From the NCBI GenBank assembly GCA_038065455.1, contig JBBTQX010000004.1, positions 5,157-69,156 of the forward strand: DNA of 64,000 nt. Reading direction: 5' to 3'. How positions within the stretch are numbered: position 1 is the stretch's first letter; every line of letters begins with the position of its first letter. Positions 34,961 through 64,000 of this stretch are shown in pieces. Below the pieces are notes generated by a model. It made no database searches and was not told where the DNA came from. It saw nothing but the letters and a program-made list of their open reading frames with translations. The stretch is from Patescibacteria group bacterium (GTDB taxonomy: Bacteria > Patescibacteriota > Minisyncoccia > UBA6257 > GWB1-50-10). The position numbers and the translations under genes are program-made.

Positions 34961-35310
34961 AAAAAATCAGCGAATTCCTGCGGCGGGTCCGTCGCTCGGA
35001 CGACCGCGAGAAAAAACGCTGGATGATTTTTTTCTCCGCTATCGGGATGATTGCCGTCGTCGCCCTTTGGATGGCTTATCTGAATATCACTCTTCCTAGA
35101 AGCTCCGCGGACGAAACGAGCGCGACCCCCGAAGAAATTGGAACATCGCCATCTTTCTTTAAAATTCTCGGAACGGGCTGGGAATCCGTTTGGAAAAGCA
35201 TCGAGAACAACGCGAATAATATCGGCAGAAATTTGGAAAATCAATGGCTGAATCTGATGGAGCAGGCAAAACGCACGAATGACGTGAACCTGGAAAAACC
35301 TTCGAATTAG
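34945..35310 (+). CDS. hypothetical membrane-anchored protein (121 aa)
   Basis: It has one TM helix (WMIFFSAIGMIAVVALWMAYL). No recognisable motif was found. Confidence 0.4.
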   Translation: MAGFLKKISEFLRRVRRSDDREKKRWMIFFSAIGMIAVVALWMAYLNITLPRSSADETSATPEEIGTSPSFFKILGTGWESVWKSIENNANNIGRNLENQWLNLMEQAKRTNDVNLEKPSN

Positions 35311-35335
35311 GATATATTAATTAAAGGAATAATTT

Positions 35336-38300
35336 ATGAATAAAGAAAAAGAAATACCGGAAGAAAGAAGGGACAAGATTCAGGCGCAGGAGATTACCTC
35401 CGAGCTCCGCGATTCCTATCTGGACTACGCGATGTCCGTCATCGTCTCGCGGGCTTTGCCCGACGTGCGCGACGGCCTGAAGCCGGTTCAGCGGAGAATT
35501 CTCTGGGCGATGTGGGACGACAGCCTGACGCACAGCGCCAAGTTCCGGAAATCGGCCAATGTCGTGGGTGCGGTCTTAGGGCGCTATCATCCGCACGGCG
35601 ACATCGCACTTTACGACGCGATGGCCCGAATGGCCCAGGATTTTTCCCTGCGCTATCCGCTAGTTGACGGGCAAGGCAATTGGGGATCGATCGACGGGGA
35701 TTCTCCCGCAGCAATGCGTTACTGCGTAACCGGAAACACTTTAATCATTACCGAAAAAGGACTGGTTCCGATTGAAAGTTTAGGAGATTCAAAAAATCTG
35801 GACGGCGAAGAAAAAAATATTCAAATAAAAATACTTTCTAAAAATAGGGGGGTTAACAAAGCCGTGAAATGGTTTGACAGCGGCAGACATCCAACGATTA
35901 AAGTGGAAACGAATCACGGATTTTCCTTGACGGGCAGTGAAAATCATCCGATTCTCACTTGGATAAAAAATCCCGCCACTGGCGCTCCTTCTTTCTCGTG
36001 GAAACTTTTAAACGATGTAAAAGAAGGAGATTTTGCCGTTATTGAAAGAACTTCCGATTTGTTATGGCCGGAAAAAAATATCAACCTGGCTTCTTATTGG
36101 CCAAATGAAAATAGGCGCTGGGATAAAAAAATCCTACCCAGAGAGTTGGATGAAAATTTAGCGTTCGTGCTTGGGGCGTTAATAGCGGAGGGAACAATCA
36201 AAGAAAATGAGATTGAATTCTGTAACAGCGATCCCGAATTCATAGATGAATTTAAGGCGAAATGGCGGAATGTTTTCCCCGATTGCCGCCTCCATCAGTT
36301 TTACCGCAAGCCGAATTCTTTTGGCAAAAAACCTTACCAAACGCTGGAGATACACTCCCGGCAAGTGGCGGCTCTATTGAGAAATGTCGGTCTTTTACCC
36401 GTGAAATCCGCCAAAAAAACGATTCCTAATCTGGTTCTTCAATCACCAAAGTCAGTTGTCGCTTCTTTCTTAAGGGCCTATTTCGAAGGAGACGGCAGTA
36501 TCAGCTGGAGCGGGAGAATGAACGAACTTAGCGCGGTTTCCACAAGCGAGAAACTTATTAAAGAAATTCAAATAGCACTTTTGAGATTTGGGATAGTATC
36601 CGCGAAAAGATTTGATAGATTAAAAAGCAATCACAAGCTCTATATTCGCGGCCTGAAAAACTACGCGCTTTTCAAAAAGCAGGTAGATTTTGCTGTTTCG
36701 GTCAAAAAAACAAAGTTGAACGGCTTATTGGAAAAAACCGAAAGAGATTCTTCATTGACGGACTTCGTGCCATTTTTATCAGAATTCATAAGGAAAAATA
36801 CGGAACGAGATTATAAAAAAGAAAGAATAACCAACCATTACAATTTTGACCGTTATTCAAACCTAAAAAACAGAGAAGCGGGCATATTAACTGCGGTTCG
36901 CTCCGAAATAAAAACCAAAACCGCCGGAGTCCTGGAATCCCTACTTTCAAACAATTACCTTTTTGACCCGATTGTAAAAGTGGAAAAAGGCGGAATTGAA
37001 AAAGTTTATTCGGTAAAAGTCGCCAGTGATTGCCACTCTTTCGTTGCGAACGGTTTTATAAATCACAACACGGAGGCGCGCCTTTCGCGGATAGCGGAGG
37101 AACTTCTCACGGATATCGAAAAAGAAACGGTGGATTGGCAGCCGAACTACGACGCCACCCGCGAAGAACCGAAATTCCTGCCGGCCCGGCTTCCGAATCT
37201 GCTTTTGAACGGCACGGTCGGCATCGCGGTCGGTATGGCGACATCCATTCCGCCCCATAATCTGGGCGAGATTGCGGACGCGACCGCTCATCTAATAGAG
37301 CACCCCGACGCCGATATAAAAGAATTGATGCAATTTATGCCCGGGCCGGACTTTCCGACCGGCGGAATCATCTACGACAAAAAAGCGCTCGAGGAAGCCT
37401 ACACGACCGGCAAGGGTTCGGTCACTATCCGCGCCAAAGCTGAGATAGAAGAAAGAACCCATTCAAAACACACCGGTCAGGCGTCATCGGGCAGCTTCCA
37501 GATAATCATCTCCGAAATTCCGTATCAGGTGAATAAATCCGATCTCATCACCAAGATGGCCGAACTCGTGACGGACAAGAAAATCGAGGGTATCCGCGAC
37601 ATTCGCGACGAATCCGACCGTGAAGGCCTCCGCATCGTCGTGGAATTAAAGAACGACTCCTCGCCCCAGAAAATACTGAATCAGCTCTATGAATATACCG
37701 AACTCCAGAAGAATTTTTATTACAACGTTCTCGCGCTCGTAAACGGCCTTCAGTCGGAGATACTATCGCTCAAAGACGTGCTCTCGGAATATCTGGAACA
37801 CCGGAAAATAGTAATTCGCCGCCGAACGGAATTCGACCTCAAAAAAGCCCAGGACCGCGCCCATATTCTCGAAGGCCTCGTTAAGGCACTCGATAACATA
37901 GACAAAATAATCTCGACCATCAAGAAATCGAGAGACCGCGAAACGGCGAAACAGAGTCTGGTCAAGAATTTCAAACTCTCACCTCTCCAAGCCGACGCCA
38001 TTTTGGAAATGAAACTTCAAAGTCTTGCCGCCCTCGAACGGGAAAGACTGGAGAACGAGCTTAAGGAAAAAAGAAAGCTTATCGCTGAGCTCGAGTTGAT
38101 ATTAAAACAGCCGAAGAGGATATTAGGCATCATTAAAGATGATCTTCTGGATCTCAAAAAAATCTTCGCTGACCCGCGCCGGACGAAAATCATCGCGACC
38201 GGACTTAAAGAATTCAAGGAAGAGGATCTAATTCCTCAAGAAGAGGCTATTATCACCTTCACTCAAGACGGCTATGTGAAAAGGATGCCGCCGACGACCT

Positions 38301-39172
38301 TCCGCGTGCAGAAGCGCGGCGGCAAGGGTCTTATCGGTTCCGATCTCAAGGATGAAGACTTGATCAACCAACTCCTTTCGGCCGACACGCACGATAACAT
38401 TATCTTCTTCACGACCGGCGGAAAAGCCTTTCAAACAAAAGTTTACGAAATACCGGTGGCCGCTCGCACCGCGAAAGGCAAATCAATCCATAACTTCTTG
38501 GAGATTCCGCCGAACGAAAAAGTGAGTGCGATTGTCACCTATCCGCAGGCGCACGCCGACGGCAAGCACTTTATGGTAATGGTGACGAAAAGCGGCGTGG
38601 TGAAGAAAACCCCATTGGCGGATTTCGAAAATGTCCGCCGGAGCGGCATCATCGCCATCAAATTGAGCGCGGGCGACATTCTGGGCTGGATAAAGCTTTC
38701 CGAAGGCGATGATCAGATAATCCTCGTAAGCGCTCTCGGACAGGCTATCCGTTTCAAGGAAAAAGACATTCGGGGTATGGGTCGCGCGGCCGCGGGCGTA
38801 CGCGCCATCCATCTCAAGAAAAGCGACAGCGTGAGCGGGCTTGATATAATAAAGAAAGAGAATTCGGACAAATCAAGAATGGTGGCGGTGATGGCGAATG
38901 GCTTCGCTAAACAGACGGCGCTCAAAGAGTATAAAATCCAGCGCCGGGGCGGCTCGGGAACAAAGACGGCCAAGATTACGGATAAGACGGGGCCGGTCAT
39001 CGGAGCGCATATCGTGGACGATAAAGTAGAGGAGGTGTTGGCTTTTTCGACTAAGGGCCAAGCCATCCGGACACCGCTCAAAGATATCAGAGTATTGAGC
39101 CGCGCCACGCAAGGGGTGAAGATTATGAACCTGGAAAAGGGGGATAATCTGGTGGGAATAGTGTGCTTATAG
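35336..39172 (+). CDS. gyrA: DNA gyrase subunit A containing an intein
   Basis: The N-extein reads ..[22 protein letters not shown] 449-aa intein follows. The C-extein reads [11 protein letters not shown].., then the GyrA core and the beta-pinwheel C-terminal domain. The extein is 829 aa. Confidence 0.9.
35723..37069 (+). other. GyrA intein with LAGLIDADG homing endonuclease domain, inserted after the catalytic Tyr
   Basis: It begins CVTGNTLI (Cys1). [14 protein letters not shown] and [12 protein letters not shown] are the LAGLIDADG blocks. It ends ..VANGFINHN, followed by Thr at +1. It sits at the same site as the Mxe GyrA intein. Confidence 0.85.
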
Positions 39173-39176
39173 AATT

Positions 39177-40394
39177 ATGAATTTATCAAAAAACCAATTA
39201 ATAATCACAGTTGCTGTCGGGGTGGTGATATTGATATTTGCGCTGGTTTTTTCGGGCATTATTCCCGGCCTCCAGAATAAAACAACGGACTCGACAAAAA
39301 TAAATGCGACTTTGAGTTTCTGGGGAATTGGAGATATGAAAGACGCTTATGTAGGCATTTTCGGTTCTTTCAAAACAACCTATCCAAATGTTACGGTGAA
39401 TTACCGCGCTTTTACGGACGGCGCCGAATACGACACCGCGCTCCTTGAAGCGCTCGCGGCCGGCCAGGGCCCTGATATTTTTATGGTTCGGAACACGGAT
39501 CTCCCGAAACAAATAAACAAAATTGCGCCCTTTCCTCAAACACAGATTGCCGCCGCGCAATTCAAGCAATATTTCCCGCAGGCCGCAGGTCAGGACTTCA
39601 CGTTGGGTCAAAATGTTTATGCCTTACCGCTCTCAATAGACACGCTCGCGCTTGTTTATAATCGCGATATCTTCGACCAGGCGGCGATGCCGCTTCCGAC
39701 GAGCTGGCAAAGCTGGGAGGATTTCACGGCCGCGGCCTCCAAATTGGAAGCCAAAACTGAAACCAACGACCTTCTCTATCTCCTTATGATGCAGAACGGA
39801 ACGAAACTTTCGGACAATAGCGGCAAAGGACTAGTGTCTTTCGCCTCTCCGAACGGCGTCCAAGCTTTGAACTTTTATTCTCCGCTTTATAAAGCAGGAG
39901 CAATCGACGATTTCAGCCAGGGTAAGACAGCGATGACTTTTGCTTACGCGCGCGACCTTCCGCGAATAGCGTTAAAGAACGGGTTTTTGAACTTTGCCGT
40001 CGCGCCCGTACCTCAACCGAAGAACGCCGCGCTCTCAATTTCGTATCCGAGTTATTGGGGCTATGCCGTTTCGCGCCAAAGTCCGAACCAAGCACTCGCC
40101 TGGAATTTCATAATCGCGATGGCGGTGAACGAGGCGACGGCAAAAGATTATGTCGAAAAAACAGGCAATCCGCCGACCTTGAACTCGCTTATTTATAAAT
40201 ATCAAAATGACCCCGCCCTCGGCGTTTTCGCGAGACAGGCCCTGACCGCCCGCTCTTGGTACCAAGCGGACGCCGAATTCATAAACAAAACCGTTTCGGG
40301 TATGATTAATTCATTCGCAAAGGGCGGAATCCAAGCAATAGAAGCCTTAAATCAGGCTCAAAGCGCCATCAACCAATCTTTGAATAAAAGATAA
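39177..40394 (+). CDS. extracellular solute-binding protein-like (SBP family 1), N-terminally anchored
   Basis: An N-terminal TM helix is followed by a sugar-type SBP-like fold (FWGIGDMKDAYVGIF.., ..DIFMVRNTD). Confidence 0.45.
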   Translation: MNLSKNQLIITVAVGVVILIFALVFSGIIPGLQNKTTDSTKINATLSFWGIGDMKDAYVGIFGSFKTTYPNVTVNYRAFTDGAEYDTALLEALAAGQGPDIFMVRNTDLPKQINKIAPFPQTQIAAAQFKQYFPQAAGQDFTLGQNVYALPLSIDTLALVYNRDIFDQAAMPLPTSWQSWEDFTAAASKLEAKTETNDLLYLLMMQNGTKLSDNSGKGLVSFASPNGVQALNFYSPLYKAGAIDDFSQGKTAMTFAYARDLPRIALKNGFLNFAVAPVPQPKNAALSISYPSYWGYAVSRQSPNQALAWNFIIAMAVNEATAKDYVEKTGNPPTLNSLIYKYQNDPALGVFARQALTARSWYQADAEFINKTVSGMINSFAKGGIQAIEALNQAQSAINQSLNKR

Positions 40395-40399
40395 TAATT

Positions 40400-40774
40400 A
40401 TGAATAATTTCTCGGCCGCTATTTTCGACATTTGGAAGGGCGCTAGTTGCGGCGCTTCCGTTCCGATAACGTCCGGCAGTGGGCCAGCCGGCCCGTGCAG
40501 TCTCTGCGATGGCCTCCAGGTGGCGATAAATATAGTGAACGGCCTTACGACGGCCGCCATCGTCATCGCGACGGCGATGATAATCTATGGCGCGGTCCGC
40601 CTAATGCTCTCGGGCGGCTCGGAACAAATGTTTAAAGACGCAAAAGGCACTATCACGAGTGCTGTTATCGGGCTCGCTATCGTCCTCGGCGCCTGGCTTA
40701 TAATAAACACCGTCATCCATATCATCTCGGGCAATGTTAATTTCCCTTGGGCGAGCATTAAGTGTTTAATATAA
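40400..40774 (+). CDS. VirB2/TrbC-like pilin family protein (paralog 1)
   Basis: It has a leader peptide, then two hydrophobic helices separated by a SGGSEQMFKDAKG loop (IIYGAVRLMLSGG...). This is the VirB2-like topology. Confidence 0.5.
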   Translation: MNNFSAAIFDIWKGASCGASVPITSGSGPAGPCSLCDGLQVAINIVNGLTTAAIVIATAMIIYGAVRLMLSGGSEQMFKDAKGTITSAVIGLAIVLGAWLIINTVIHIISGNVNFPWASIKCLI

Positions 40775-41163
40775 ATAAAATGTTCAAAAAAATTATTTCA
40801 ATTGTGAGCCTAACAGCCTTCTTGTTGGTTTTATCGGTTGCGACGATTGCATCTGCTCAAAATCCTCAACCTCCTCCCCCTAGTGGTTTAATTAATCCAC
40901 TTTGCCCCGCAGGTAATCCGAATTGCGCCCGCTCCGACGCCGAAGGCCTCTTAAATTCCATCGTAAGCTGGCTTTTGATAATCGCAACTCCGATTGCAGT
41001 CGGAATGATAATTTACGGCGCTTTCCAGATGATTTTCGCCGGCGGCGACCCGGAAAAATTCAAGAACGGCAAGATGACGATTCTTTACACGGCAATCGGC
41101 TATGGTATAATCCTGATAGGTGAGGGTATCACCCTGATAATCAAGGACGTTCTGAGCAAATAA
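40762..41163 (+). CDS. VirB2/TrbC-like pilin family protein (paralog 2)
   Basis: The signal peptide ends ..ASA. The core reads MIIYGAFQMIFAGGDPEKFKNGKMTILYTAIGYGIIL. Confidence 0.55.
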   Translation: MFNINKMFKKIISIVSLTAFLLVLSVATIASAQNPQPPPPSGLINPLCPAGNPNCARSDAEGLLNSIVSWLLIIATPIAVGMIIYGAFQMIFAGGDPEKFKNGKMTILYTAIGYGIILIGEGITLIIKDVLSK

Positions 41164-41201
41164 GATACCCCATAAAAGGTCGCTTTTAGATATAAATAAA
41201 A

Positions 41202-41546
41202 ATGATAAAAAATAAAAAATTGATTAGCGGAGTTGCGTTTCTGGTTGTTTTATTGCCAGTTCTGGCTTTTGCTCAAATTTCTGGTCTCCCGGTTCAAATC
41301 ACGTCGGTAACTGAGGCTAGCACCAGATTAGGAGCCATTGTGGGTTTTTTCGTGATTTTATTTTGGGTTCTCACCGTTGCCATGTTAATCTGGGCTGCCA
41401 TAATTTATCTCACAGCCGGTGGCGATGAGGAAAAATTAAAGGAGGCTAAGAGCCGGATAATCTATGCCGTAATAGCGGCCGCTATCGCCTTACTATCTAC
41501 CAGTCTGAAATCCATTGTTACAAATCTAATCGGTGGTACCAGTTAA
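41202..41546 (+). CDS. VirB2/TrbC-like pilin family protein (paralog 3)
   Basis: The signal peptide ends ..AFA. The core reads IWAAIIYLTAGGDEEKLKEAKSRIIYAVIAAAIAL. Confidence 0.55.
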   Translation: MIKNKKLISGVAFLVVLLPVLAFAQISGLPVQITSVTEASTRLGAIVGFFVILFWVLTVAMLIWAAIIYLTAGGDEEKLKEAKSRIIYAVIAAAIALLSTSLKSIVTNLIGGTS

Positions 41547-41568
41547 TCGGGTTTTATAGATACTAAAA

Positions 41569-41597
41569 AACACTCTCACAAAGGAGGGTGTTTTTTT
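41569..41597 (+). terminator. rho-independent terminator
   Basis: The hairpin ACACTCTC-acaaag-GAGGGTGT is followed by TTTTTTT. Confidence 0.6.
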
Positions 41598-41627
41598 TAC
41601 AACAGTTAAAGTAATATAATATGTAAT

Positions 41628-41921
41628 ATGTTCAATAAAATCGTCACTGTGGTTTTTGCCGCAGATCCCCCAATAAAATCTATAACGGATGTGGAAAACA
41701 CTCTAGTCAAGATTGTAAATTTGATGTTTGGGATATTTTGGATAATTGCGGTCGTCGTTATTATTTGGGCCGCTTTTACGTTCCTTACGGCTGGCGATGA
41801 CAAAGAAAAGGTGGAGAAAGCTAAAAAGATTCTCCTTTACGCTTTGATCGCTGCCACTGTGGCGCTTTTAGCAAATAGCATTGGTCCGGTTTTGAGCAAT
41901 CTTCTTGGTGGAATATCCTAA
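41628..41921 (+). CDS. VirB2/TrbC-like pilin family protein (paralog 4)
   Basis: The core reads IIWAAFTFLTAGDDKEKVEKAKKILLYALIAATVALL. Confidence 0.5.
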   Translation: MFNKIVTVVFAADPPIKSITDVENTLVKIVNLMFGIFWIIAVVVIIWAAFTFLTAGDDKEKVEKAKKILLYALIAATVALLANSIGPVLSNLLGGIS

Positions 41922-43254
41922 GATAATTGGAGTTATGTTAACGAATATTTTTCAAAAACAATTAATTAAAATTGTTTTTTTCTCACTAATTATAATTAGT
42001 GCCTTAGCACATATCTATAAAATAAATTTGCCTGCAATTCCAGTCTTTGACGAGTCTTATTTTTCCACCTTTGCCGCCCAGAACGCCCTCGGCGAACCCT
42101 ACTTCGATATTCATCCTCCGCTCGGCAGACTAATATTTACCCTTCCGTTATTTTCAAAAAGCCGGGAAGCGCTTAAAGATGCGGACTTTGTAAGAACATA
42201 CCGAAGCCCGACGAGCAGCCAAATAATAACTGACTATAGGCCGGGGAGTTATAAAAGTTTTCCTTATTTGGATTTGAGATTAATAAGTGTTCTTTCGGGT
42301 TTGGCATTTCTTTCGGCGCTTTTCTTTTTCATCCGGGAGCTGGCAGGGGACAAGGTCGCTCTTCTTGCAATGTTTCTTGCAGCTTTGGAAAATGCGCTTC
42401 TGCTCCATACCCGCCTCATCTTAATGGATGGAATGTATCTGGCGCTCGGTTTATTCGGCCTCTACTTCTTCGTTAGAAAATATCCGAAACCTATTCTGGG
42501 CGGGTTGTTATTCGGCGCGGCCTTGGCTGTAAAACTCACTGCCATTGCCCTTATTGGGCCGGCTCTGGTTCTATGGATGCTTTCGGGCGACAAAAAAACA
42601 GCCGGAAAAAACTTTTTGAAATTCTGTCTTATATCTTTTGGAACTCTCCTGGTACTCTGGTTTTCCATAAACACCCTGCTTTCCCCCCCCGGAGAAAGGC
42701 TCGCCTCATTCAATGAAATTATGGGGACTAGCCTCGCGCCTGCTTTCTGGACGCCGATAATAATGTTTTTGAAAGATATTTTAGTATCATTCGTCGGTTA
42801 TACTTTCGGCGGAAATAACCCAATGATGAGCCCGTGGTATTTTTGGCCCATTCTTTTAGGAACTATCCATTACGATAATTCAGGGATGAACATAAGACTT
42901 GTCGGCAATATTTTCGTCTGGTATCTTTCAACACTCGCGGTTCTCGCGGCAATCGTGAAGTTCGCGAGAGACGGGATAAAAAAAATCAGCTTGAGCGAAG
43001 AATACAAACCGGCGCTTATCCTGCTTGGCGGATATATATTCGCCCTGGTTCCGTTTTTTACGATAATCCGCCGAGCGACTTTCCTGTACCACTACTTCCC
43101 CGCGCTTGCTTTTGCCATCGGTCTTGCGGCCTTTTTTATAATAAAATTCCTTGAGAATAAATCTAAGGGAATAAAAAACACGGCTATTTCCGCGATAATA
43201 ATTCTCACCGTCATCGGTTTCATCGTTTCCGCTCCCTATACCTACGGTTTATAA
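41905..43254 (+). CDS. PMT/ArnT-like (GT39/GT83) membrane glycosyltransferase
   Basis: VFDESYFSTFA...DIHPPLGRLIF matches the DE...HPPLGK signature of protein O-mannosyltransferase-like enzymes. It has about ten TM segments. Confidence 0.6.
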   Translation: MVEYPKIIGVMLTNIFQKQLIKIVFFSLIIISALAHIYKINLPAIPVFDESYFSTFAAQNALGEPYFDIHPPLGRLIFTLPLFSKSREALKDADFVRTYRSPTSSQIITDYRPGSYKSFPYLDLRLISVLSGLAFLSALFFFIRELAGDKVALLAMFLAALENALLLHTRLILMDGMYLALGLFGLYFFVRKYPKPILGGLLFGAALAVKLTAIALIGPALVLWMLSGDKKTAGKNFLKFCLISFGTLLVLWFSINTLLSPPGERLASFNEIMGTSLAPAFWTPIIMFLKDILVSFVGYTFGGNNPMMSPWYFWPILLGTIHYDNSGMNIRLVGNIFVWYLSTLAVLAAIVKFARDGIKKISLSEEYKPALILLGGYIFALVPFFTIIRRATFLYHYFPALAFAIGLAAFFIIKFLENKSKGIKNTAISAIIILTVIGFIVSAPYTYGL

Positions 43255-43269
43255 GAATTAAAAAAAACA

Positions 43270-43308
43270 GAGCCTCAACTCTGAATATTTCGGAGCGAGG
43301 CTCTTTGA
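43270..43308. terminator. bidirectional rho-independent terminator
   Basis: The hairpin is AGAGCCTC-aactctgaatatttcggagc-GAGGCTCT, with an A-run upstream and T-rich sequence downstream. It lies between convergent genes. Confidence 0.55.
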
Positions 43309-43368
43309 ATCTACAAACTAAAACTTGTAACTTACAACCGGGTCTTATGACCTCATTCCGAAAACCAG

Positions 43369-44256
43369 CTAATTCCAAGCTATTGAAGTGGCATCTACAT
43401 CACCGTCAAGCGCCGTCATCCAAAAGATGGCTTGCCGCTCAACTTTACCGCTTAAGCTTTTTCCAATGTCCACCGTATCAGTGGACCCATTTTGAAATTT
43501 AACAAGCGTTCTTCCGGTAACAATCACGTCAACCATACGTCGGTAATTATAATTGTAAAGATCTATCTTTTCGCTCCGCACGCCTTTTGTAAGGTGTATC
43601 GGAAAAGAAATCAGATCTTTTTTCTCCGGCTCTGTAGGGATGTTCGCAACGGAATTCTGATAAATTACCGTTGCTACAACCGGCGATTGTTTCACCGATG
43701 TAGTATCTAACAGCCAACCTGCCGTCTTCCCATCCCATCTGCTTACCGCCCCACCAACAGCATTTAAAGTTGATGGAATAACCGCGTACAAGAAGAAAAG
43801 AATTGTAATCCCGATTGCCAGAAAAGTTAACACACTTCTGGAACTGGTCACGAATTTTTCCATCCCATAGGGATCATACGATGGAAGAAATATTAATGCC
43901 AGAATAACAAGTAAAAATACCGGAATCAGTGATACAACACTTGTTATTGGAACTATTACCAAATAAAGAGCGAATAATAATTCGAATCCCAGCACCAATC
44001 CAATCAATGTCAGAAGACGCCTTCCTCCACTTATCAGTGCAACAGCGCCAATTAGCAGGGGATCAGCCACAACCATAAAGAATAGGAGAATCCCAATTAA
44101 AGCGAATGTGACTGTAAGCCATGGATATCCAAATAATGCGACGATAACAATTAAAAACGGATACAAAAAAGAGATAATAATTGCTATCTTTAAAATTAAC
44201 CAAACCATTAGTACCTGTGGGGTACGGAAAATTTCTACTATTGTTCTCATTGCCAT
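43369..44256 (-). CDS. hypothetical polytopic membrane protein (295 aa)
   Basis: It has at least five TM helices and a hydrophilic C-terminal domain. It overlaps the upstream ORF by 10 nt, so the two are probably an operon. Confidence 0.45.
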   Translation of the reverse strand: MAMRTIVEIFRTPQVLMVWLILKIAIIISFLYPFLIVIVALFGYPWLTVTFALIGILLFFMVVADPLLIGAVALISGGRRLLTLIGLVLGFELLFALYLVIVPITSVVSLIPVFLLVILALIFLPSYDPYGMEKFVTSSRSVLTFLAIGITILFFLYAVIPSTLNAVGGAVSRWDGKTAGWLLDTTSVKQSPVVATVIYQNSVANIPTEPEKKDLISFPIHLTKGVRSEKIDLYNYNYRRMVDVIVTGRTLVKFQNGSTDTVDIGKSLSGKVERQAIFWMTALDGDVDATSIAWN

Positions 44257-44828
44257 TCTCCTTTCTTTTCACCTCTGAATTTTCTTAACCAATTTGCGGC
44301 ATTTTTATCCGCCTCATTGAAGCTTTCCCAAAAACCTTTTCCTTTGGGTTTGTCGTCAGCAATAACCGGTTCTTCTTTCTTACCGAAGAAGATATCATCA
44401 AAGAGTTGGAGCTCTTTCTTTATCTTCTCCGCTTCTTTTTCCATGTCCATATCACCGGCTTTTTCCAGACGTTCGAATATTTTACCAACAAAAGCTGCTC
44501 TAGTGCTTTCTGCGGCTTTAGAGGAAATATCCTTTTTTTGTTTTTTTCCAGACACGTCTCCTTCTTTTTTGTTATCCAGTCTATCTGAAACATATTCCAA
44601 AAAATCGGAGCTTTTTTCCATTATCGCCGAAAGAAATGGATTAGAAACTTTCTCTGCTCTTCCTTCTATCCAACTGGTAAAAAGATCGAAACCTCTCTTT
44701 AAGATAGGGTTATTTCTTAATTTACTATCCTCCGGGATAAATTTTTCAACGAACAAGTCGGCAAGTTTTTCCAACTCTGTATTGAAGAAACTCAATGCCT
44801 CATTTACGTGTTGTTTTTTAACAGCCAT
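44247..44828 (-). CDS. hypothetical protein (193 aa), Lys/Glu-rich
   Basis: A strong Shine-Dalgarno sequence (GGAAAGGAG) and a promoter lie upstream. The gene is in a low-GC region. No recognisable motif was found. Confidence 0.45.
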   Translation of the reverse strand: MAVKKQHVNEALSFFNTELEKLADLFVEKFIPEDSKLRNNPILKRGFDLFTSWIEGRAEKVSNPFLSAIMEKSSDFLEYVSDRLDNKKEGDVSGKKQKKDISSKAAESTRAAFVGKIFERLEKAGDMDMEKEAEKIKKELQLFDDIFFGKKEEPVIADDKPKGKGFWESFNEADKNAANWLRKFRGEKKGEWQ

Positions 44829-44904
44829 TTTTACATCTCCTTTCCTTCCTTTCGGAAGAATCTAGTTATAAGTTAGTTATTTATTATGACAATATTCTGC
44901 TTAT

Positions 44905-44933
44905 ATCTTAGCATAGAACAAATTAGTTGTCAA
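44905..44933 (-). promoter_or_regulatory. sigma70-type promoter TTGACA-17-TAAGAT (minus strand)
   Basis: The -35 is the reverse complement of tgtcaa at 44928-44933. The -10 is the reverse complement of atctta at 44905-44910. Confidence 0.5.
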
Positions 44934-44950
44934 TTACTCGTAAGGCACAT

Positions 44951-45326
44951 TCAACCCTCAAGTGCAACACTCATCACCTCCTGGGGTGTTCTCCACCCCA
45001 GACGTTTTCTTGGTCTTGAATTTAATGCGCGTTCGACATACGCGATATCTTCTTCCTGTATCATAGTGAAATCAGTCTTCTTGGGGAAGTAGTCTCGGAT
45101 GAGGCCATTCGTGTTTTCGTTCGTGAGCCAGACGAGGGGTATATACTCTGCGCTCCCCGGGAAAGTTTCTCTGCAGCTCCCTGGAGACTGACGATGGAGA
45201 GCGATTCAAAACAAAAGCAATAGAACGGACCGATTCCCTTTTCCACCTCATCACCTGAATGATTTCCCTCTCTTCGATTGAAAAATGTTGATATGACATA
45301 CACTTCATTTTACCGAAGTGTTGCAC
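44951..45326 (-). pseudogene. IS30-family transposase pseudogene (core deleted, frameshifted)
   Basis: The evidence is as for the element above. The two homologous segments are in different reading frames and together cover about 145 of the roughly 340 aa expected. Confidence 0.65.
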
Positions 45327-45335
45327 TTACTTGTT
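44951..45335 (-). mobile_element. internally deleted IS30-family element (remnant) with 12-13 bp terminal inverted repeats
   Basis: The inverted repeats are AAGTGCAACACT at 44959-44970 and AGTGTTGCACTT at 45320-45331. The transposase N-terminal helix-turn-helix region (HFSIEEREIIQ..RSPSSVSRELQRN) is present. The C-terminal tail (PLVWLTNENTNGLIRDYFPKK..LNSRPRKRLGWRTPQEV) is present in a different frame. The DDE catalytic core is missing. Confidence 0.7.
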
Positions 45336-45385
45336 GAACTAACTAAATCGCGGTATTATGCGATAAATAAAGGGTATTTTAGCAT

Positions 45386-45469
45386 GGGCAGGTGGCGAAA
45401 TTGGCAGACGCACCAACTTTAGGAGTTGGCGATCGCAAGGTCTTGTGGGTTCAAGTCCCACCCTGCCCA
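45386..45469 (+). tRNA. tRNA-Leu (anticodon UAG), type II with long variable arm
   Basis: The acceptor stem is GGGCAGG/CCTGCCC. The anticodon arm is CCAAC-TTTAGGA-GTTGG. The long variable arm is CGATCGCAAGGTCTT. The T-arm is GTGGG-TTCAAGT-CCCAC. Confidence 0.85.
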
Positions 45470-45496
45470 CTAGATAATTATTAATTCTCCGTATTG

Positions 45497-45530
45497 GGGC
45501 CTGAAACCGATTATTTATCGGTTTGTTTTT
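45497..45530 (+). terminator. rho-independent terminator after tRNA-Leu
   Basis: The hairpin AAACCGAT-tattt-ATCGGTTT is followed by GTTTTTGTT. Confidence 0.55.
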
Positions 45531-45550
45531 GTTCCTATGTTTTATCATTA

Positions 45551-45584
45551 CTATCCTATTTATCCGACCGGATAAATAGGATAG
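45551..45584. promoter_or_regulatory. 15-4-15 perfect palindrome CTATCCTATTTATCC-gacc-GGATAAATAGGATAG (operator-like)
   Basis: It lies downstream of the PaaX-like gene at 45644..46231. A related ATCCTATC-ggaaa-GATAGGAT palindrome lies upstream of the same gene. Confidence 0.5.
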
Positions 45585-45643
45585 TAAGAAGACAAAATAA
45601 AAAACGTGGAAATAACAATATTGGAAATCGGCAAAAACGAATC

Positions 45644-46231
45644 TTAGTTGATTTGTTTTAAACTTCCCGCCTTGCTGATTTCAAAAATTTCGACAAAATC
45701 AACCATATTAAACTTATCCAAATCATCGATGAATTGTTTTGGGATTTTTACTTTGCCAACCCATACGCTTTTCTGAATCATTTTCAAGTCCAGGTTTTTT
45801 AAAACTTCTCTAATCCAGGCTCGCTTTGATCTTTCTTTTTCCGGAATATCGAAAACAACAATGGTAAATTGACCCTTTTCTTTCGAATAGCTCATAGGCC
45901 GAGGCAATCTTTTTATATTATCCAATTTCAATTTTTCAAGTTTTTCTTTTCCTTTTCCGGTAATGGAGAAGAAATTTGTCTTGTTTCTCGCTTCAACTTT
46001 TATAAGGCCGTCTTCTTTTAGTTTATAAAGAAGGTTGTAATATTTTTGTTTAATTTCCGCTTCTTTTTTTCTTCCGGCTCTATCGTCTTTTATTTTATAT
46101 GTCTCGTGTTCCATTCTACCAATGGAGGCACCGTAACCGGCATTCAAGAAAGCATTGAAAAAATCAAAACTATTAATTGTCATATCTCCTAAAACCTCCA
46201 AAACCTTCAATAAAATATCTCCTTTAGCCAT
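45644..46231 (-). CDS. PaaX-like transcriptional regulator family protein
   Basis: FTIVVFDIPEKERSKRAWIREVLKNLDLKMIQKSVWVG resembles the PaaX C-terminal domain pattern W.G.W.lv..ipe..R..R..lr..L...Gf..lq.SVw. It is a paralog of the gene at 55294..55863. Confidence 0.5.
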   Translation of the reverse strand: MAKGDILLKVLEVLGDMTINSFDFFNAFLNAGYGASIGRMEHETYKIKDDRAGRKKEAEIKQKYYNLLYKLKEDGLIKVEARNKTNFFSITGKGKEKLEKLKLDNIKRLPRPMSYSKEKGQFTIVVFDIPEKERSKRAWIREVLKNLDLKMIQKSVWVGKVKIPKQFIDDLDKFNMVDFVEIFEISKAGSLKQIN

Positions 46232-46254
46232 ATTTTTATTATACTATCTTATTA

Positions 46255-46275
46255 ATCCTATCGGAAAGATAGGAT
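46255..46275. promoter_or_regulatory. palindrome ATCCTATC-ggaaa-GATAGGAT overlapping the -35 region of the PaaX-like gene promoter
   Basis: It is followed on the minus strand by TAGTATAAT and an AAGGAG Shine-Dalgarno before the ATG at 46231. Confidence 0.5.
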
Positions 46276-46316
46276 AGTGATTCTATTAATAAAATAAATA
46301 GAAGAATATCTTCTTA

Positions 46317-47210
46317 CTATTTGCGGCGGCGGGCGTGGAAGGTCTGATGGATTTCCTTGAGCTCCTTATTGGTCAGGTGGGTATAGACCTGGGTGGTCGA
46401 AATATTGGCGTGGCCCAGAAGCGACTGGACCGAACGCAGGTCGGCGCCGTTTATAAGAAGGTCGGTGGCAAACGAGTGTCGGATTTGATGGGGGTGGACT
46501 TTTTTCGGGATGCCGGCTTTTTTGGCGTAGAAAGAAGTTAATCTCTGAACGGAACGGGGATTTATCCGGCCGATTACCTTGTTCTTTTTGGTCAGGCTCG
46601 CGAAAAGGTATTCCTCGGTATCGCTTCTTTTTTCCAAATAGTTTTTAATGGATTTTTTGGCCCCCTCCGACAGAAAAACCACCCGGAGCTTGTCGCCTTT
46701 TCCGCGCACGGATATTTCGCCCCGCTCCAAATCCAGATAGCGGGGGAGGGCGCAAAGTTCGGAGAGCCGGAGACCGGTCGAGAAAAATGTTTCCAAAATT
46801 GCCCGGTCCCGAAGCGAGCGCAAATCCTTCCCGTCGGGAGCCGAAACCAGGCGCTCCAATTCTTTATAGTCCAGGGTTTCAATGTCGCGTCGGGAAACCC
46901 TCGGCAACTCTATTTTTTCCGGAGCGAGCACTTTTATATCGCGCTTCAGGAGATATTTCAAAAGATTGCGAATGGCGATTACGTAATAACTCTGGGTATT
47001 TTTTTTCAAATCTTTGCGGGAAAGATTTACCCGGAAGTCGCGCACCGCATCCTCCGTAATATCCTTAATGGAACGGATTTTCTGGTTTTCCAGAAAAAAT
47101 TTCAGGTAGCGCCCATAGTTCTCGCGCGTCTTCCGCGAGCGGTTTCTTTCCACCTCCAGATAGTCCAGATAATCCTTGAGATATTTTTCCGCTTCGGTCA
47201 TTTGTTTCAT
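46317..47210 (-). CDS. tyrosine recombinase (XerC/XerD-like phage-integrase family)
   Basis: The C-terminal catalytic motifs are present (HQIRHSFATDLL, LLGHANISTTQVYTHL). The N-terminus has a SAM-like domain. It is 297 aa. Confidence 0.8.
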   Translation of the reverse strand: MKQMTEAEKYLKDYLDYLEVERNRSRKTRENYGRYLKFFLENQKIRSIKDITEDAVRDFRVNLSRKDLKKNTQSYYVIAIRNLLKYLLKRDIKVLAPEKIELPRVSRRDIETLDYKELERLVSAPDGKDLRSLRDRAILETFFSTGLRLSELCALPRYLDLERGEISVRGKGDKLRVVFLSEGAKKSIKNYLEKRSDTEEYLFASLTKKNKVIGRINPRSVQRLTSFYAKKAGIPKKVHPHQIRHSFATDLLINGADLRSVQSLLGHANISTTQVYTHLTNKELKEIHQTFHARRRK

Positions 47211-47225
47211 CTTACCACTTCTGTC

Positions 47226-47571: not shown

Positions 47572-47580
47572 GGAAAAACC

Positions 47581-47847: not shown

Positions 47848-47851
47848 ACAG

Positions 47852-56462: not shown

Positions 56463-57260
56463 ATGAAAAAAAGGAAAATAATCTCCGCCATTATTTTATT
56501 GAGCGGTTTGGCATTTTTTCTGCTAATCGTCAATTCCACCGGAAAAAATCAAGAATTTCCGGCCATGGTAGCCCTGAATAAGAATAACTCTGAATCCGGT
56601 TTTGACTACCGAACCGATAAAAATCGGGACATTATCCCGAGCGCGATTTCCGGAACAAATATGTCTCCCGCGACCGACAATTTAACCGAATTGCTCGCTA
56701 AAAACATTTCCAGTGGAATTCTCACGGTAAACAGTAAACTAGTATCCGAACAAGGAACTTCTTCCATTGCCCTTCCTTCATCTAATTCGTTGGGCAACTC
56801 CATAGAGCAGTCTATCGAGCAAAATATGAAATTCCCGGTCTTCGGCTTAAAAGATATCAGAATCGGCTCTGATAATTCGCCGGAGGCCCAACTCGCTTAT
56901 TTCAACACAATCGGGGAAATATCCAAGAAAAACTTTGGGAATTTCAAAACCTCCATCGTGACAATGCTCAATAATTTAATTGAAAATAACGATTCCACCG
57001 CACTCGCCAAATACGCTAGAATTGCAAATAAACAAGTCGCTGATTTTCTTGCGCTTAAAGTCCCGGAACAACTTTCCGCTTGGCATCTACAAAACCTGAA
57101 TTTATGGCAGAAGAAATTCACGGCCTATTCCGCGATGGCTAATTTGAGTTCCGATCCGCTCAAAATGATTATCGCCTTCAAAGAGGTTCCGAATATCGTG
57201 CAGGAAACATTGAATTTGGATTCAGTGATGAAAGAAAAATATTTAAAATTGATACCATAA
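56463..57260 (+). CDS. hypothetical N-terminally anchored exported protein (265 aa)
   Basis: The signal or anchor segment reads IISAIILLSGLAFFLLIV. It lies in a T4SS-like neighbourhood. Confidence 0.45.
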   Translation: MKKRKIISAIILLSGLAFFLLIVNSTGKNQEFPAMVALNKNNSESGFDYRTDKNRDIIPSAISGTNMSPATDNLTELLAKNISSGILTVNSKLVSEQGTSSIALPSSNSLGNSIEQSIEQNMKFPVFGLKDIRIGSDNSPEAQLAYFNTIGEISKKNFGNFKTSIVTMLNNLIENNDSTALAKYARIANKQVADFLALKVPEQLSAWHLQNLNLWQKKFTAYSAMANLSSDPLKMIIAFKEVPNIVQETLNLDSVMKEKYLKLIP

Positions 57261-58981
57261 TGGATTTATTGATGAAAAAAATTATTTCTTTGGTTCTTTT
57301 AACGTCTGTTTTGGCGGGAACCGCATTAATGGTTCCTCAAAAAGCTCAAGCGGCTGATCCGATAACCTGGGCGGTTTGCGGAGCATATGAAGCAACAATA
57401 GGGAAATTGTTCGGGGCTGCTGAAGATACAGTGAGTGGAACCATATCGGGTGCTGCGAATAAAATAGTGAACAAAGTAGTGAGCATTGATGCTGTTCCAG
57501 TTTCCGATAGTGCAGTTCAAAGCGGTCAAAAAGCGCAGGTCGCGAGCGATAAAAAAACGGAATGTGAGCGTTTTGTAGCGGATGTCGCGCTTGCCGCTTT
57601 GAAAAAACGACTTTTAAATATTATGACCCAGGATGTCGTAGAGTGGATAAATAATGGGTATGGGCCAGAAGGACCTAAATTCACCCAAGACTTCGAAAAA
57701 GTTTTCACCGACGCCGGGGACCAAGCTATAGGTGATATTCTTCAAGAATATGCCTTCACTGCTCCGCTTTGTAAACCTTTTTCTTTTGATATCACTTTCC
57801 AACTCCAGCAGCCGGCTCCGCTCGCCGAAAGAGCCCAATGTACGCTCACGAGCGTCATTAAAAGCTTTGAAAGCTACCGGGACGACTTCAAGAACGGCGG
57901 CTGGATCGGCTATCAGGAGCTTCTAAAACCTCAAAACAACCAATGGGGAGTGGAGCTTCTGACTCAAAGCGAGATAACGAGCCGCACGGCTCTTAAGATA
58001 AATTCCAGCGCTCTAAAAGAAACTGTTAATGTTGGATTCGATTCTTCGGAATGCACCGGCGGATGGGATTTAATGGATAAAATAACTAAACAGCTGGCAA
58101 AAGCTGGTTCCGAAATAGACCAAAATACAATAAATTTTTATGGTCATATAAATAAGGGTGATGTTTATCATGGGAAGACTTGGGACGATCCAAAATTAGC
58201 ACCTCCTTCTCCGACGAAAAGTAGTAAAAATTTCTTTTATAGTTGTGCTGGTACCACAATCACGACACCCGGTCGGACGATTGCGGCCGCTTTGGAAAAA
58301 TCCATTCTTCCAGAATTTGATCTTATAATAAACTCAAAAGACCTTACCAATTCTCTCGCTATTATCGCCGACGCGGCTATCAATGACATTATAAAAAGAG
58401 GGGTAAGAGGAATACAGAATTTCAATAAACCCGTTCCGAAAAATCCAGAAAATGAGAAGTTTTCCGATTCCCAAAGAAACAGGGTTAATCAGGCATCCGG
58501 GGATTACGATAAAATCCAAGGGCAGATAAGCAACAGTAAAACGACAGGTGCTTATCTTGACCAGATTAATCCGGCCGCCAACACCATTCTCGCCGCCTCA
58601 TCGATTCTCAAAAATGCTTCCGATAAAAACGAAGAAGCGATAAAAACCGGTCAAGATACTCTTGCCTGTATTGCCCAATCAAATACTCACGCCGATAGAC
58701 CTGCCATTCAAGCCGCCGTGGACAAAGCGAATTTAAACCCCGTGCTCATCACCGCAAAATCAACAGAAATTAAAACTAATTCCGCTTCCATACAAACCCT
58801 TATTTCCCAAATTAACGCGGGTAATTGTGATACCTATTACCAACCTCAATCTTGCCAATCTCAAATAGATGGCAAAAGATCTGCCGCCGGACAACTTAAT
58901 ATCGACGCTAATAACCTTCTAAATTCTGTTCAAGATACACTAACCAATCTGGAAGAATTAAAAAAGAAAGTTTGCTCTTAA
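57260..58981 (+). CDS. hypothetical secreted protein (573 aa)
   Basis: The signal peptide ends ..AQA-AD. The protein is Gln/Asn/Thr-rich and shows no enzymatic motif. Confidence 0.45.
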   Translation: MDLLMKKIISLVLLTSVLAGTALMVPQKAQAADPITWAVCGAYEATIGKLFGAAEDTVSGTISGAANKIVNKVVSIDAVPVSDSAVQSGQKAQVASDKKTECERFVADVALAALKKRLLNIMTQDVVEWINNGYGPEGPKFTQDFEKVFTDAGDQAIGDILQEYAFTAPLCKPFSFDITFQLQQPAPLAERAQCTLTSVIKSFESYRDDFKNGGWIGYQELLKPQNNQWGVELLTQSEITSRTALKINSSALKETVNVGFDSSECTGGWDLMDKITKQLAKAGSEIDQNTINFYGHINKGDVYHGKTWDDPKLAPPSPTKSSKNFFYSCAGTTITTPGRTIAAALEKSILPEFDLIINSKDLTNSLAIIADAAINDIIKRGVRGIQNFNKPVPKNPENEKFSDSQRNRVNQASGDYDKIQGQISNSKTTGAYLDQINPAANTILAASSILKNASDKNEEAIKTGQDTLACIAQSNTHADRPAIQAAVDKANLNPVLITAKSTEIKTNSASIQTLISQINAGNCDTYYQPQSCQSQIDGKRSAAGQLNIDANNLLNSVQDTLTNLEELKKKVCS

Positions 58982-60994: not shown

Positions 60995-61843
60995 ATGATT
61001 AATCCTTTAAAAATAACCCAGGGGCAATTCGACCGGCGATGGGATGAAATGCCAGAAAGTCTTCGTGAACTTCTTTATTCTCCGGAACACGCCGAAATAA
61101 TCAGACTCATCTGCGAAAATCACCACCTGAGTGAAGAAAAAATAGAGACGGTTCTTGGTGTTGTTGGGAGTATTATTGCTGGATTTATTCATATTCAAGA
61201 TCTGGATCATCAAATTGTGGTTGTTCTTGATTTAAATCCCGAGTTGGCGAAAACGCTAGCTCTCGAAATCAATGAGCGGGTATTGGTTCGTTTCGAAAAA
61301 GAAATTGAGGATGTTTTTCAGCCGGTTTTGACGACTGGGGGAGCAAAAAAGAAAGAGAAAGAGAATAATAATTTAACGAACGTTAAGATTGTGGACGAAG
61401 ATGTACCTGGGCCCGTTTCTTTGTCGGAAAAGCCTTTTATTCTTCATCAAGAAAAATCCGAGGCTCCGGAAGAGAAGAAATCGTCTTTCAAAGGATTTTC
61501 GATGCCGTTCGGATTTTTCAAATCTAAAAATCAGCCAACTCCCGCCGGAAAATCGACAAAGGTGGAAATAGAAACTTCCGGCGACTCTCCGAAAAACGAA
61601 AAAAGAACGGTGAACTACAATGAGCTCCGTACCTCGCTCTCGCCCTTTGAAGTTGAACAAAATTTCATCAATCCCGTTAAAAATGAACCGGTTTCCGCGC
61701 TAATCGTTCCGATTCCGGAAATAAAACCCGTTCCGGCGGCGCCGGAAATATCCCCGCTCTCGGAAGAAAAGAAAAGCGAGATATTCGGCACCATCAAAAA
61801 GCCCCAGCCGAAAACGGAGGGAAATACCATCGATCTGCGATAA
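60995..61843 (+). CDS. hypothetical protein (282 aa)
   Basis: No recognisable motif was found. The C-terminus is Pro/Glu/Lys-rich. Confidence 0.4.
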   Translation: MINPLKITQGQFDRRWDEMPESLRELLYSPEHAEIIRLICENHHLSEEKIETVLGVVGSIIAGFIHIQDLDHQIVVVLDLNPELAKTLALEINERVLVRFEKEIEDVFQPVLTTGGAKKKEKENNNLTNVKIVDEDVPGPVSLSEKPFILHQEKSEAPEEKKSSFKGFSMPFGFFKSKNQPTPAGKSTKVEIETSGDSPKNEKRTVNYNELRTSLSPFEVEQNFINPVKNEPVSALIVPIPEIKPVPAAPEISPLSEEKKSEIFGTIKKPQPKTEGNTIDLR

Positions 61844-63439: not shown

Positions 63440-63440
63440 A

Positions 63441-63572
63441 ATGAATCCCGTTAGAGACATAAGCCTTATGAAAAATATGATTACCAAACAATCAATGAAA
63501 TCCAATAAAGTCGAGTTAACTAATCCATCACGGATGCGCTTTTTGAGCGCATCCTGTCTCTAACGGGATGAA
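63441..63572. mobile_element. small element bounded by inverted repeats (copy e), lying between the two halves of the VirB4-like gene
   Basis: The ends are ATCCCGTTAGAGAC ... GTCTCTAACGGGAT. The hairpin GGATGCGC-tttttga-GCGCATCC sits next to the right arm. ATGAAT is directly repeated on both flanks. The right flank supplies the ATG of the downstream ORF. Confidence 0.6.
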
Positions 63573-64000
63573 TATTAAAATTCCTAAAGCGTACAAGCCG
63601 GGCGCCGAAGATATTCCGAACGTAATCGCTCCAGCGGGGCTGGAGATCGCGAGCAATTATATTAAGATAGGCGATTATTATTCCAAAACTTTTTTCGTTT
63701 TTACCTATCCCAGATATATTTCGACCGGCTGGTTCTCGCCGCTCGTAAATCTTCCGGAAATGATGGATATTTCCATATTCATCCACCCGATGGATACCGC
63801 GCTCGCGCTCCGAAACCTCCGAAAGAAAGTGGCTCAAGTTGAAGCTGAAATAAGCGAAAAAGAGGAAAAAGGTATTGTCCGCGACCCCGTACTCGAAACG
63901 GCCTATCAGGACATAGAATCGCTCCGGGATTCTCTTCAACAAGCACGGGAAAAACTCTTTGAGGTGGGTGTTTATATCACGATTTACGGGAAAAACCTGG
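63568..64000 (+). CDS. VirB4/TrbE-like conjugation ATPase, continuing segment (partial at window end)
   Basis: It begins MNIKIPKAYKPG. IKIGDYYSKTFFVFTYPRYISTGWFSPLVNLPEMMDISIFIHPMDTALALRNL resembles the VirB4 N-domain core. Confidence 0.55.
   Translation, partial: MNIKIPKAYKPGAEDIPNVIAPAGLEIASNYIKIGDYYSKTFFVFTYPRYISTGWFSPLVNLPEMMDISIFIHPMDTALALRNLRKKVAQVEAEISEKEEKGIVRDPVLETAYQDIESLRDSLQQAREKLFEVGVYITIYGKNL

Follow-up and report, generated by a model that had tools for sequence, protein, structure and literature searches.

Introduction

Type IV secretion systems (T4SSs) with arrays of pilin genes are a leading candidate conduit for host exploitation by ultra-small Patescibacteria. In the one genetically tractable patescibacterium, Southlakia epibionticum (strain ML1), epibiotic life depends on the T4SS and its pilin array: transposon sequencing showed the T4SS to be essential, and the six PF18895 pilins encoded within the T4SS cluster (SEML1_0014-0019) are all essential (Wang et al. 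2023, PMC10633639). Here we describe an array of four tandem pilin-like genes, with its neighbours and its relatives in other genomes, in a stretch of 64,000 nucleotides from a Patescibacteria group bacterium (contig JBBTQX010000004.1, positions 5,157 to 69,156); this whole stretch is referred to below as the window.

When 3,035 Patescibacteria genomes were searched with the models PF04956 and PF18895, 383 assemblies proved to hold a total of 441 VirB2 arrays, each with 2-11 genes; mean identity was 25% and the maximum 54%, and the authors discussed antigenic or host-range variation (Quinonero-Coronel et al. 2025, PMC12102498). A 2025 review suggests that such arrays may supply the pilus of a monoderm T4SS (PMC12857230), and both publications point out that Gram-positive T4SSs normally lack pili.

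The array reported here is a further instance of the Patescibacteria pilin arrays described between 2023 and 2025, and is no new kind of system. It shares with them the family PF18895 (sometimes accompanied by PF04956); the tandem arrangement of 2-11 divergent subunits of ~100-140 aa with ~25% mean identity; and a chromosomal location together with a monoderm-type T4SS that includes VirB4, PrgI and VirB6. It differs from the S. epibionticum array in position, lying ~15 kb upstream of the T4SS cluster in a string of gyrA, a solute-binding protein (SBP) gene and the pilin genes, whereas the S. epibionticum array lies next to VirB6 and has no SBP beside it; and it differs from the known Patescibacteria arrays in that a PMT-family gene follows it in this clade and one of its paralogs has lost the signal peptide. 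For a Paceibacteria-like lineage, our results add that the pilin paralogs are ancient, ordered and probably non-redundant; that one pilin class can apparently manage without a signal peptide; and that the array is coupled tightly and widely to the SBP gene and gyrA, and only locally to PMT.

Four tandem genes of the T4SS pilin family

The four genes of the array very probably encode VirB2-like pilin subunits of a chromosomal T4SS of the monoderm (MPF-FATA-like) type in a bacterium of the Patescibacteria/Candidate Phyla Radiation. The genes, and a promoter-like site among them, are as follows.

40400..40774, + strand: pilin paralog 1 (class 1, 124 aa), Cys-rich and VirB2-like, without signal peptide; PF18895 at 37.2 bits
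40780..41163, + strand: pilin paralog 2 (class 2, 127 aa); PF18895 at 46.9 bits, PF04956 at 30.6 bits
41084..41111, + strand: promoter-like site ahead of paralog 3 and still within the 3' part of paralog 2; TTTACA-16-TATAAT with a TG upstream, 11/12 positions, the best match in 35000-44500 (consensus match only)
41202..41546, + strand: pilin paralog 3 (class 3/4, 114 aa), with a clear signal peptide; PF18895 at 35.2 bits
41628..41921, + strand: pilin paralog 4 (97 aa, class 3/4), whose N-terminal leader is very short; PF18895 at 47.3 bits

An earlier annotation of this DNA made without database searches (the sequence-only reading) had claimed four consecutive small open reading frames (ORFs) encoding VirB2/TrbC-like pilins, and both parts of this claim hold. 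The ORF listing places them in tandem on the + strand at 40400-40774, 40762-41163, 41202-41546 and 41628-41921 (ORF1 to ORF4; 124, 133, 114 and 97 aa), and the peptide quoted in that reading lies in ORF2. The longest form of ORF2 runs from a GTG at 40762, and gene callers, together with an identical NCBI protein (P0001, named 'MAG: pilin [Patescibacteria group bacterium]', where MAG stands for metagenome-assembled genome), place its start at the ATG at 40780, which gives 127 aa. The array is flanked by the SBP gene (39177-40394) before it and the PMT-family gene after it, and consensus matching, the only approach used here, found no terminator-like site on the + strand between gyrA and the end of the PMT gene.

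The four proteins can be aligned over a common core, and their alignment against each other, which the sequence-only reading had proposed as a check, gave local pairwise identities of 25-44% and scores 4-21 standard deviations above shuffled controls, with ORF3 and ORF4 as the closest pair (44% identity). A profile built from the four paralogs and their homologs matches exactly ORF1-4 and no other ORF in the 64-kb window. The family is very large: in a set of 1.84 billion proteins, the four-paralog profile matched 52,716 cluster representatives (E <= 1e-3). Judged by these alignments, the four ORFs are true paralogs.

Each of the four ORFs exceeds the PF18895 (T4SS_pilin) gathering cut-off of 26.6 bits, scoring 37.2, 46.9, 35.2 and 47.3 bits from ORF1 to ORF4. 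With PF04956 (TrbC/VirB2; gathering cut-off 27.9 bits), for which the sequence-only reading had suggested a profile search, ORF2 scores above the cut-off (30.6 bits) and ORF4 just below it (25.5 bits), and ORF1 and ORF3 give no match at E <= 1. Precomputed Pfam annotation assigns the same families on four independent contigs (L001-L004). No significant holin or other rival family was found for ORF1-4 in Pfam, NCBIfam or PHROGs. That the proteins are not type IV pilins, as had been proposed from the lack of a prepilin motif, is borne out by a regular-expression search, which found no G/FTLIE-type motif in the four ORFs, and by Pfam and NCBIfam, in which none of them matches N_methyl or TIGR02532 at E <= 1; an LPXTG motif is likewise absent from all four.

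The family assignment relates the array to several described systems. Like TrbC of RP4 and VirB2 of the Agrobacterium Ti plasmid, the proteins have a two-helix hydrophobic hairpin with a short charged loop, preceded by a signal peptide that is clear in ORF2 and ORF3, and ORF2 passes PF04956; those systems differ in that they belong to diderms, usually have a single pilin gene within the virB/trb operon, cyclise their pilins head to tail, and employ VirB5 and VirB7-10 partners, none of which was seen here. The Mbov_0395 family (NF045849), a pilin-like family from integrative and conjugative elements (ICEs) of Mycoplasma, is likewise a small hairpin protein of a wall-less/monoderm T4SS; it differs in being ICE-encoded and acting in conjugation, and the weak matches of ORF1-4 to it (E 1e-6 to 7e-4, 19-28 bits) stay below its 40-bit cut-off, so that membership was rejected.

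Many other matches of the profile are poly-pilins, single polypeptides with 2-17 tandem VirB2-like domains, e.g. P0068 (606 aa) and P0164 (1775 aa). P0068 consists of a signal peptide and seven hairpin units joined by linkers such as SF(D/G)IP(S/T)xxT; these linkers are similar to the motif with which the mature forms of ORF3 and ORF4 begin, and it is possible that this linker motif marks a processing site.

A common hairpin with class-specific motifs

The sequence-only reading had described one architecture for all four proteins: a leader, two hydrophobic helices, and between them a charged loop with a GG(D/S) motif. Hydropathy supports the central part of this description, as each ORF contains two hydrophobic helices separated by a short charged (K/E-rich) loop. 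The loop motif itself is GG(D/S) in ORF1-3 and AGDD in ORF4, and the leader is absent from ORF1 and reduced to a hydrophobic N-terminus of only 12 residues in ORF4. In the AlphaFold2 model of ORF2 (predicted local distance difference test, pLDDT, 78.4), the signal peptide forms a helix, and a disordered spacer separates it from the hairpin (H54-85/H91-126); ORF1 (pLDDT 65.7) was modelled as a hairpin (H35-70/H75-110) with termini of pLDDT below 50.

By sequence inspection, ORF2 has the signal peptide MFKK...IASA|Q and ORF3 the clear signal peptide MIKNKK...LAFA|Q, and ORF4 has the short leader MFNKIVTVVFAA|DPP; the leaders of the class to which ORF4 belongs are degenerate in the nearest relatives and classical in the loci L010 and L015. 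ORF1 begins with MNNFSAAIFDIW, with an in-frame stop codon 15 nt upstream, and lacks the signal peptide that is carried by its orthologs, most of which have a classical one ending in SASA|A. Leaderless forms of class 1 comprise the protein of the window and three relatives (P0047, P0048 and P0050; 67-80% identity), which start with M(x)NF(S/P)AA, and ORF1 and its 67-80%-identity subclade start with M(x)NFSAAIFDIW; the NFSAA at the start of ORF1 (40400-40440) is a remnant of the signal-peptide C-region. As relatives of 67-80% identity share this truncation, the loss of the ORF1 leader is old and tolerated and not an assembly error.

The classes differ in their motifs: class 1 has the signature IWxG...C...CxxCD...FPWxxIxC, with C33, C36, C122, W12, W99 and W117 as invariant residues; class 2 has NPL after the leader, invariant in 34 homologs; and in class 3/4 the leader is followed by P(I/V)TS(L/V). 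The N-terminal segments of the pilins are rich in Pro, Ser and Thr. It is conceivable that the four cysteines of ORF1 staple its N- and C-termini in a disulfide mimic of VirB2 cyclisation; in the AlphaFold2 model both termini have pLDDT below 50.

Three pilin classes in a fixed order among relatives

One genome per species was scanned with an alignment of the ORF2 family, which yielded 49 loci in which an ortholog of ORF2 is present by construction and all other features are independent of the search. All 49 come from Patescibacteria MAGs, under the labels Minisyncoccia and Jorgensen-, Lipton-, Wolfe- and Nealsonbacteria, with a doubtful 'Saccharibacteria' label in some. The first position of the array is occupied by the ORF1 type (class 1) in 40 of the 49 loci and the second by the ORF2 type (class 2) in 37, and positions 3-4 hold the ORF3/ORF4 type (class 3/4); the assignment to class 1 or class 2 exceeds that to the next-best class by +16 to +126 bits in nearly all loci. 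The comparison thus shows that the paralogs form three classes (class 1, class 2 and class 3/4) that are ancient and kept in a fixed order. The copy number of class 3/4 varies among genomes, and the arrays of relatives hold 2-12 pilin genes.

Ortholog identity to the three nearest species is 56-71% in the pilins, 60-62% in the SBP, 52-61% in the PMT-family protein and 83-90% in GyrA, so that the pilins do not outpace their neighbours in divergence. Furthermore, the 4 kb from 39177 to 43254 are 100% identical, without any variation, in four independent metagenome contigs. The fixed order and the class-specific motifs together suggest that the classes have non-redundant roles.

In many relatives the pilin at position 1 bears an extension of 150-400 aa, mostly C-terminal and in some N-terminal (L018:6432-7979, L019:6432-7988, L020:6873-7982, L045:6843-7982 and L050:6414-7769; also L037, L046, L055 and L056). 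These class-1 extensions could be domains displayed on a minor pilin.

Genes flanking the array

The array is embedded in a string of genes on the + strand, of which the following adjoin it.

35336..39172, + strand: gyrA with an intein, at the head of the gyrA-SBP-pilin string; DNA_topoisoIV, Intein_splicing, LAGLIDADG_3 and DNA_gyraseA_C (precomputed)
39177..40394, + strand: family-1 SBP, membrane-anchored, with a single N-terminal transmembrane (TM) segment; PF13416 1.5e-25, PF01547 1.1e-23
41935..43254, + strand: PMT-family (GT39-like) membrane glycosyltransferase, 13 nt past paralog 4 from the gene callers' start; PF02366 2.5e-14, PF16192 2.1e-21

In 44 of the 49 species loci the gene immediately before the pilin array is that of the SBP, at a median gap of 4.5 nt, and three of the five loci that lack it there end without upstream sequence on the contig; L055 and L056, the most divergent loci, have no gyrA, and even there the SBP gene adjoins the pilins. 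This adjacency hints at a possible functional link of the SBP to the pilins. For this orphan SBP, Pfam scans of the window revealed neither an ABC permease nor an ATPase. The SBP gene is in turn immediately preceded by gyrA in 36 of 37 loci. Neither PMC12102498 (main text and supplements) nor the other T4SS literature that we searched mentions an association of such arrays with SBP, gyrA or PMT. The GyrA of the window, 1278 aa in total, contains an intein with a LAGLIDADG homing-endonuclease domain, and several relatives have an intein-free GyrA of ~810-830 aa.

The PMT-like glycosyltransferase that the sequence-only reading had placed after the array was found at 41935-43254, with both the PMT domain (PF02366) and the PMT_4TMC domain (PF16192). 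It follows the array immediately in only 11 of 45 loci, all of them in the nearest clade, on the same strand and with small gaps; in the other loci the gene after the array is usually on the opposite strand and has no Pfam family. The PMT gene may be co-transcribed with the array, and it is conceivable, though speculative, that the pilins are its substrate, with O-mannosylation falling on their Pro/Ser/Thr-rich N-terminal segments. The window also encodes a eukaryote-type phosphomannomutase (PF03332; 22536-23282, - strand) and a GT2-family glycosyltransferase (8380-9870, - strand), candidates for a mannose donor pathway, and these two could supply the donor for a PMT-type enzyme. Beyond the PMT gene, two convergent genes without an assigned family occupy 43369-44828 (- strand); they encode proteins of ~293 aa (with five hydrophobic segments) and 193 aa, and homologs of the former recur downstream of the array in four relatives (L014, L030, L038 and L041).

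T4SS core genes in the same window

The T4SS core is located at 56463-64000, ~15 kb downstream of the array.

56463..58981, + strand: a secreted or anchored protein of 265 aa and another of 573 aa, which open the T4SS core, each with an N-terminal hydrophobic segment
58997..60985, + strand: VirB6/TrbL-like polytopic membrane protein (662 aa); precomputed PF19590 TrbL_3, ~9 hydrophobic segments
60995..61843, + strand: 282 aa protein of the T4SS core; the VirB6-like gene precedes it and PrgI follows it, a position kept in L005-L007
61854..62336, + strand: PrgI family protein (VirB3/TraL-like); PF12666 at 29.8 bits vs a cut-off of 27, TIGR02762 TraL 3.5e-4
62396-62740: 23S rRNA-intervening-sequence protein (23S-rRNA-IVP, PF05635) between prgI and the TrsD-like gene, its position kept in L005-L007
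62804..63439, + strand: TrsD/TraC-like protein, homologous to the VirB4 N-terminal domain; NF041427 TrsD 4e-8, VirB4_plasma 1.3e-9, TIGR00929 3.7e-6
63568..64000, + strand: first part of the gene for the VirB4 ATPase, cut off by the end of the window; NF045975 4e-14, NF045971 1.7e-13

The co-occurrence with VirB4 and VirB6 to which the sequence-only reading had pointed is thus seen within the window itself, where genes for VirB6/TrbL_3-like, PrgI/VirB3 and TrsD-like proteins and the start of virB4 occupy 58997-64000. On a longer contig (L007), VirB4 is a protein of 583 aa with DUF87, AAA_10 and P-loop_TraG domains. The TrsD/TraC-like gene carries a precomputed match to PF26593 (TraC-like), and hmmscan against Pfam-A gave no family for it at E <= 1. 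Neither the 265 aa nor the 573 aa protein has a Pfam or NCBIfam family, and their genes are co-linear with the VirB6-like gene in independent contigs; no family was found for the 282 aa protein.

The window is part of a Patescibacteria chromosome, close to MAGs labelled Minisyncoccia/Paceibacteria: it is rich in housekeeping genes (aminoacyl-tRNA synthetases, NusA, FtsK, RecA, FtsH, the intein-containing GyrA, PNPase and KsgA), its FtsK is of the chromosomal type with alpha and gamma domains, and Pfam detected no relaxase or coupling protein in it. Several metagenome runs from groundwater and other sources contain this contig as well, among them samples from the Hainich groundwater wells. An origin of the array from a mobile element was rejected on account of the housekeeping neighbours and the synteny conserved across 49 species.

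Discussion

The PF18895 scores of all four ORFs, the shared hairpin and the T4SS core in the same window make it very probable that the array encodes VirB2-like pilin subunits of a chromosomal monoderm-type T4SS. Several observations weigh against this reading: the classical TrbC/VirB2 model (PF04956) is passed by one ORF of the four; ORF1 lacks a signal peptide; the array stands outside the T4SS cluster, ~15 kb or roughly 24 ORFs from TrsD/virB4, and is tightly linked to SBP and gyrA instead; the VirB6 label depends on the precomputed PF19590 (TrbL_3) match, which a separate hmmscan against Pfam-A (E <= 1) did not reproduce; fold searches give no support, with no match below E = 2 for the ORF2 model in a Foldseek search of the Protein Data Bank (PDB) and no PDB sequence matched by profile; and no pilus has been observed for any patescibacterial T4SS, PMC10633639 and PMC12857230 only proposing one. 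Of these, the fold searches are uninformative in either direction, because hundreds of unrelated chains match a helical hairpin. Despite the discrepancy between the two Pfam results, we consider the 662 aa protein a VirB6-like candidate on the basis of the precomputed match, its ~9 hydrophobic segments and its position upstream of PrgI.

The alternative that survives best, which we nevertheless hold to be quite unlikely, accepts that the four proteins are VirB2-family by descent and denies the pilus: they would be membrane subunits that work with the SBP in an uptake or sensing complex, or only a membrane-embedded part of the T4SS channel. Its appeal lies in the close and persistent SBP linkage (44 of 49 loci, retained in L055 and L056 without gyrA), in the distance of the array from virB4, in the normal lack of pili in Gram-positive T4SSs, and in the fact that no pilus has been seen so far. 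However, family-1 SBPs usually partner MalF/G-type ABC permeases and not 2-TM hairpins; membership in PF18895 and TrbC is direct; the array of S. epibionticum is part of the T4SS cluster, shares its essentiality and lacks a neighbouring SBP; and the fusion of pilin domains to large extracellular extensions in relatives fits a displayed subunit.

A second alternative goes back to the sequence-only reading, which had suggested antigenic or functional diversification; in its antigenic form the proposal would make the array a recently expanded set of fast-diversifying, interchangeable pilin variants for antigenic or host-range variation. Bartonella (Trw) and Anaplasma phagocytophilum likewise have several divergent virB2 copies in tandem, and these are thought to serve antigenic or host-receptor variation; the same idea was raised for Patescibacteria arrays in PMC12102498, and the low identity of the paralogs (25-44%) and the variable copy number of class 3/4 in arrays of 2-12 genes would agree with it. 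We consider it highly improbable here, as classes 1 and 2 correspond one to one between the 49 species genomes and keep their order, in nearly all loci +16 to +126 bits ahead of the next-best class; the pilin orthologs diverge at the rate of the flanking SBP and PMT genes, so that in contrast to the Bartonella and Anaplasma copies they form ancient ordered classes at background rate; the locus shows zero variation over 4 kb in four independent metagenome contigs; and classes 1 and 2 have invariant motifs of their own (IW..C..CxxCD..FPW..C and NPL, respectively). Because of this positional orthology, the equal rates, the class motifs, the leader loss and the extensions, specialised and non-redundant subunits are a better account than a recent antigenic set, and of the two forms of diversification suggested earlier it is the functional one that fits better.

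Finally, there is a negligible probability that the ORFs are other small two-TM proteins such as holins, bacteriocin/immunity peptides, type IV prepilins or sortase pilins: their size and two hydrophobic helices are generic and ORF1, alone of the four, has one weak PHROG holin match (E = 0.023, 15.9 bits, the best found), yet there is no phage context around the array, whose neighbours are housekeeping genes, no significant holin or bacteriocin family and neither a G/FTLIE nor an LPXTG motif, and all four ORFs score above the PF18895 cut-off, which refutes such families at the level of sequence-family tests.

For the T4SS pilin reading, VirB2/TraA biology and the work on S. epibionticum allow a mechanism to be proposed, in which we infer that the four proteins may form a pilus. 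Paralogs 2 and 3 would take the Sec route for export, with signal peptidase I cleaving them after ASA or AFA, whereas paralogs 1 and 4 would probably insert into the membrane without a classical leader; all four would then reside in the membrane as hairpins, with the K/E-rich loop cytoplasmic and both termini outside. A VirB4/VirB3/VirB6 machine would extract the pilins from the membrane and polymerise them into an extracellular filament or a wall-crossing conduit, which would serve contact or exchange with a host cell and not conjugation. It is tempting to speculate that class 1, with its four cysteines and the large extra domains of its relatives, is a specialised minor or tip subunit, and that class 3/4 provides the bulk (major) subunit.

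Our results favour a heteromeric pilus over antigenic variation and put forward the SBP as a candidate partner. A more elaborate model, unlikely in its full form, would hold that the T4SS pilins of Paceibacteria-like bacteria are a fixed three-class set encoded in a gyrA-SBP-pilin operon apart from the T4SS core; that they build a heteromeric pilus on a monoderm cell, O-mannosylated in this clade; and that the SBP is an unrecognised accessory of this pilus, as a receptor, as an anchor, or for cargo-capture of host molecules.

Other features of the window

Near the T4SS core, a protein with LysM and Peptidase_M23 domains is encoded at 53472-54335 (- strand). VirB1-like candidates in Patescibacteria often carry LysM/Peptidase_M23 domains and are associated with virB4 in Paceibacteria (PMC12102498).

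Two paralogous proteins with PaaX_M/Cas2-like domains are encoded at 45644-46231 (- strand) and 55294-55863 (+ strand), and Pfam scans of the window turned up no CRISPR-associated family. One of these genes adjoins an integrase gene of the XerC/D type (46317-47210, - strand) and a gene for an HTH_38 protein (45072-45326, - strand).

The cumulative GC skew of the window reaches its minimum at about 44000-48000, and around 47.3-47.9 kb the genes turn from the - to the + strand. The window yielded no dnaA, and the region ~44000-48000 may be a replication-related switch point.

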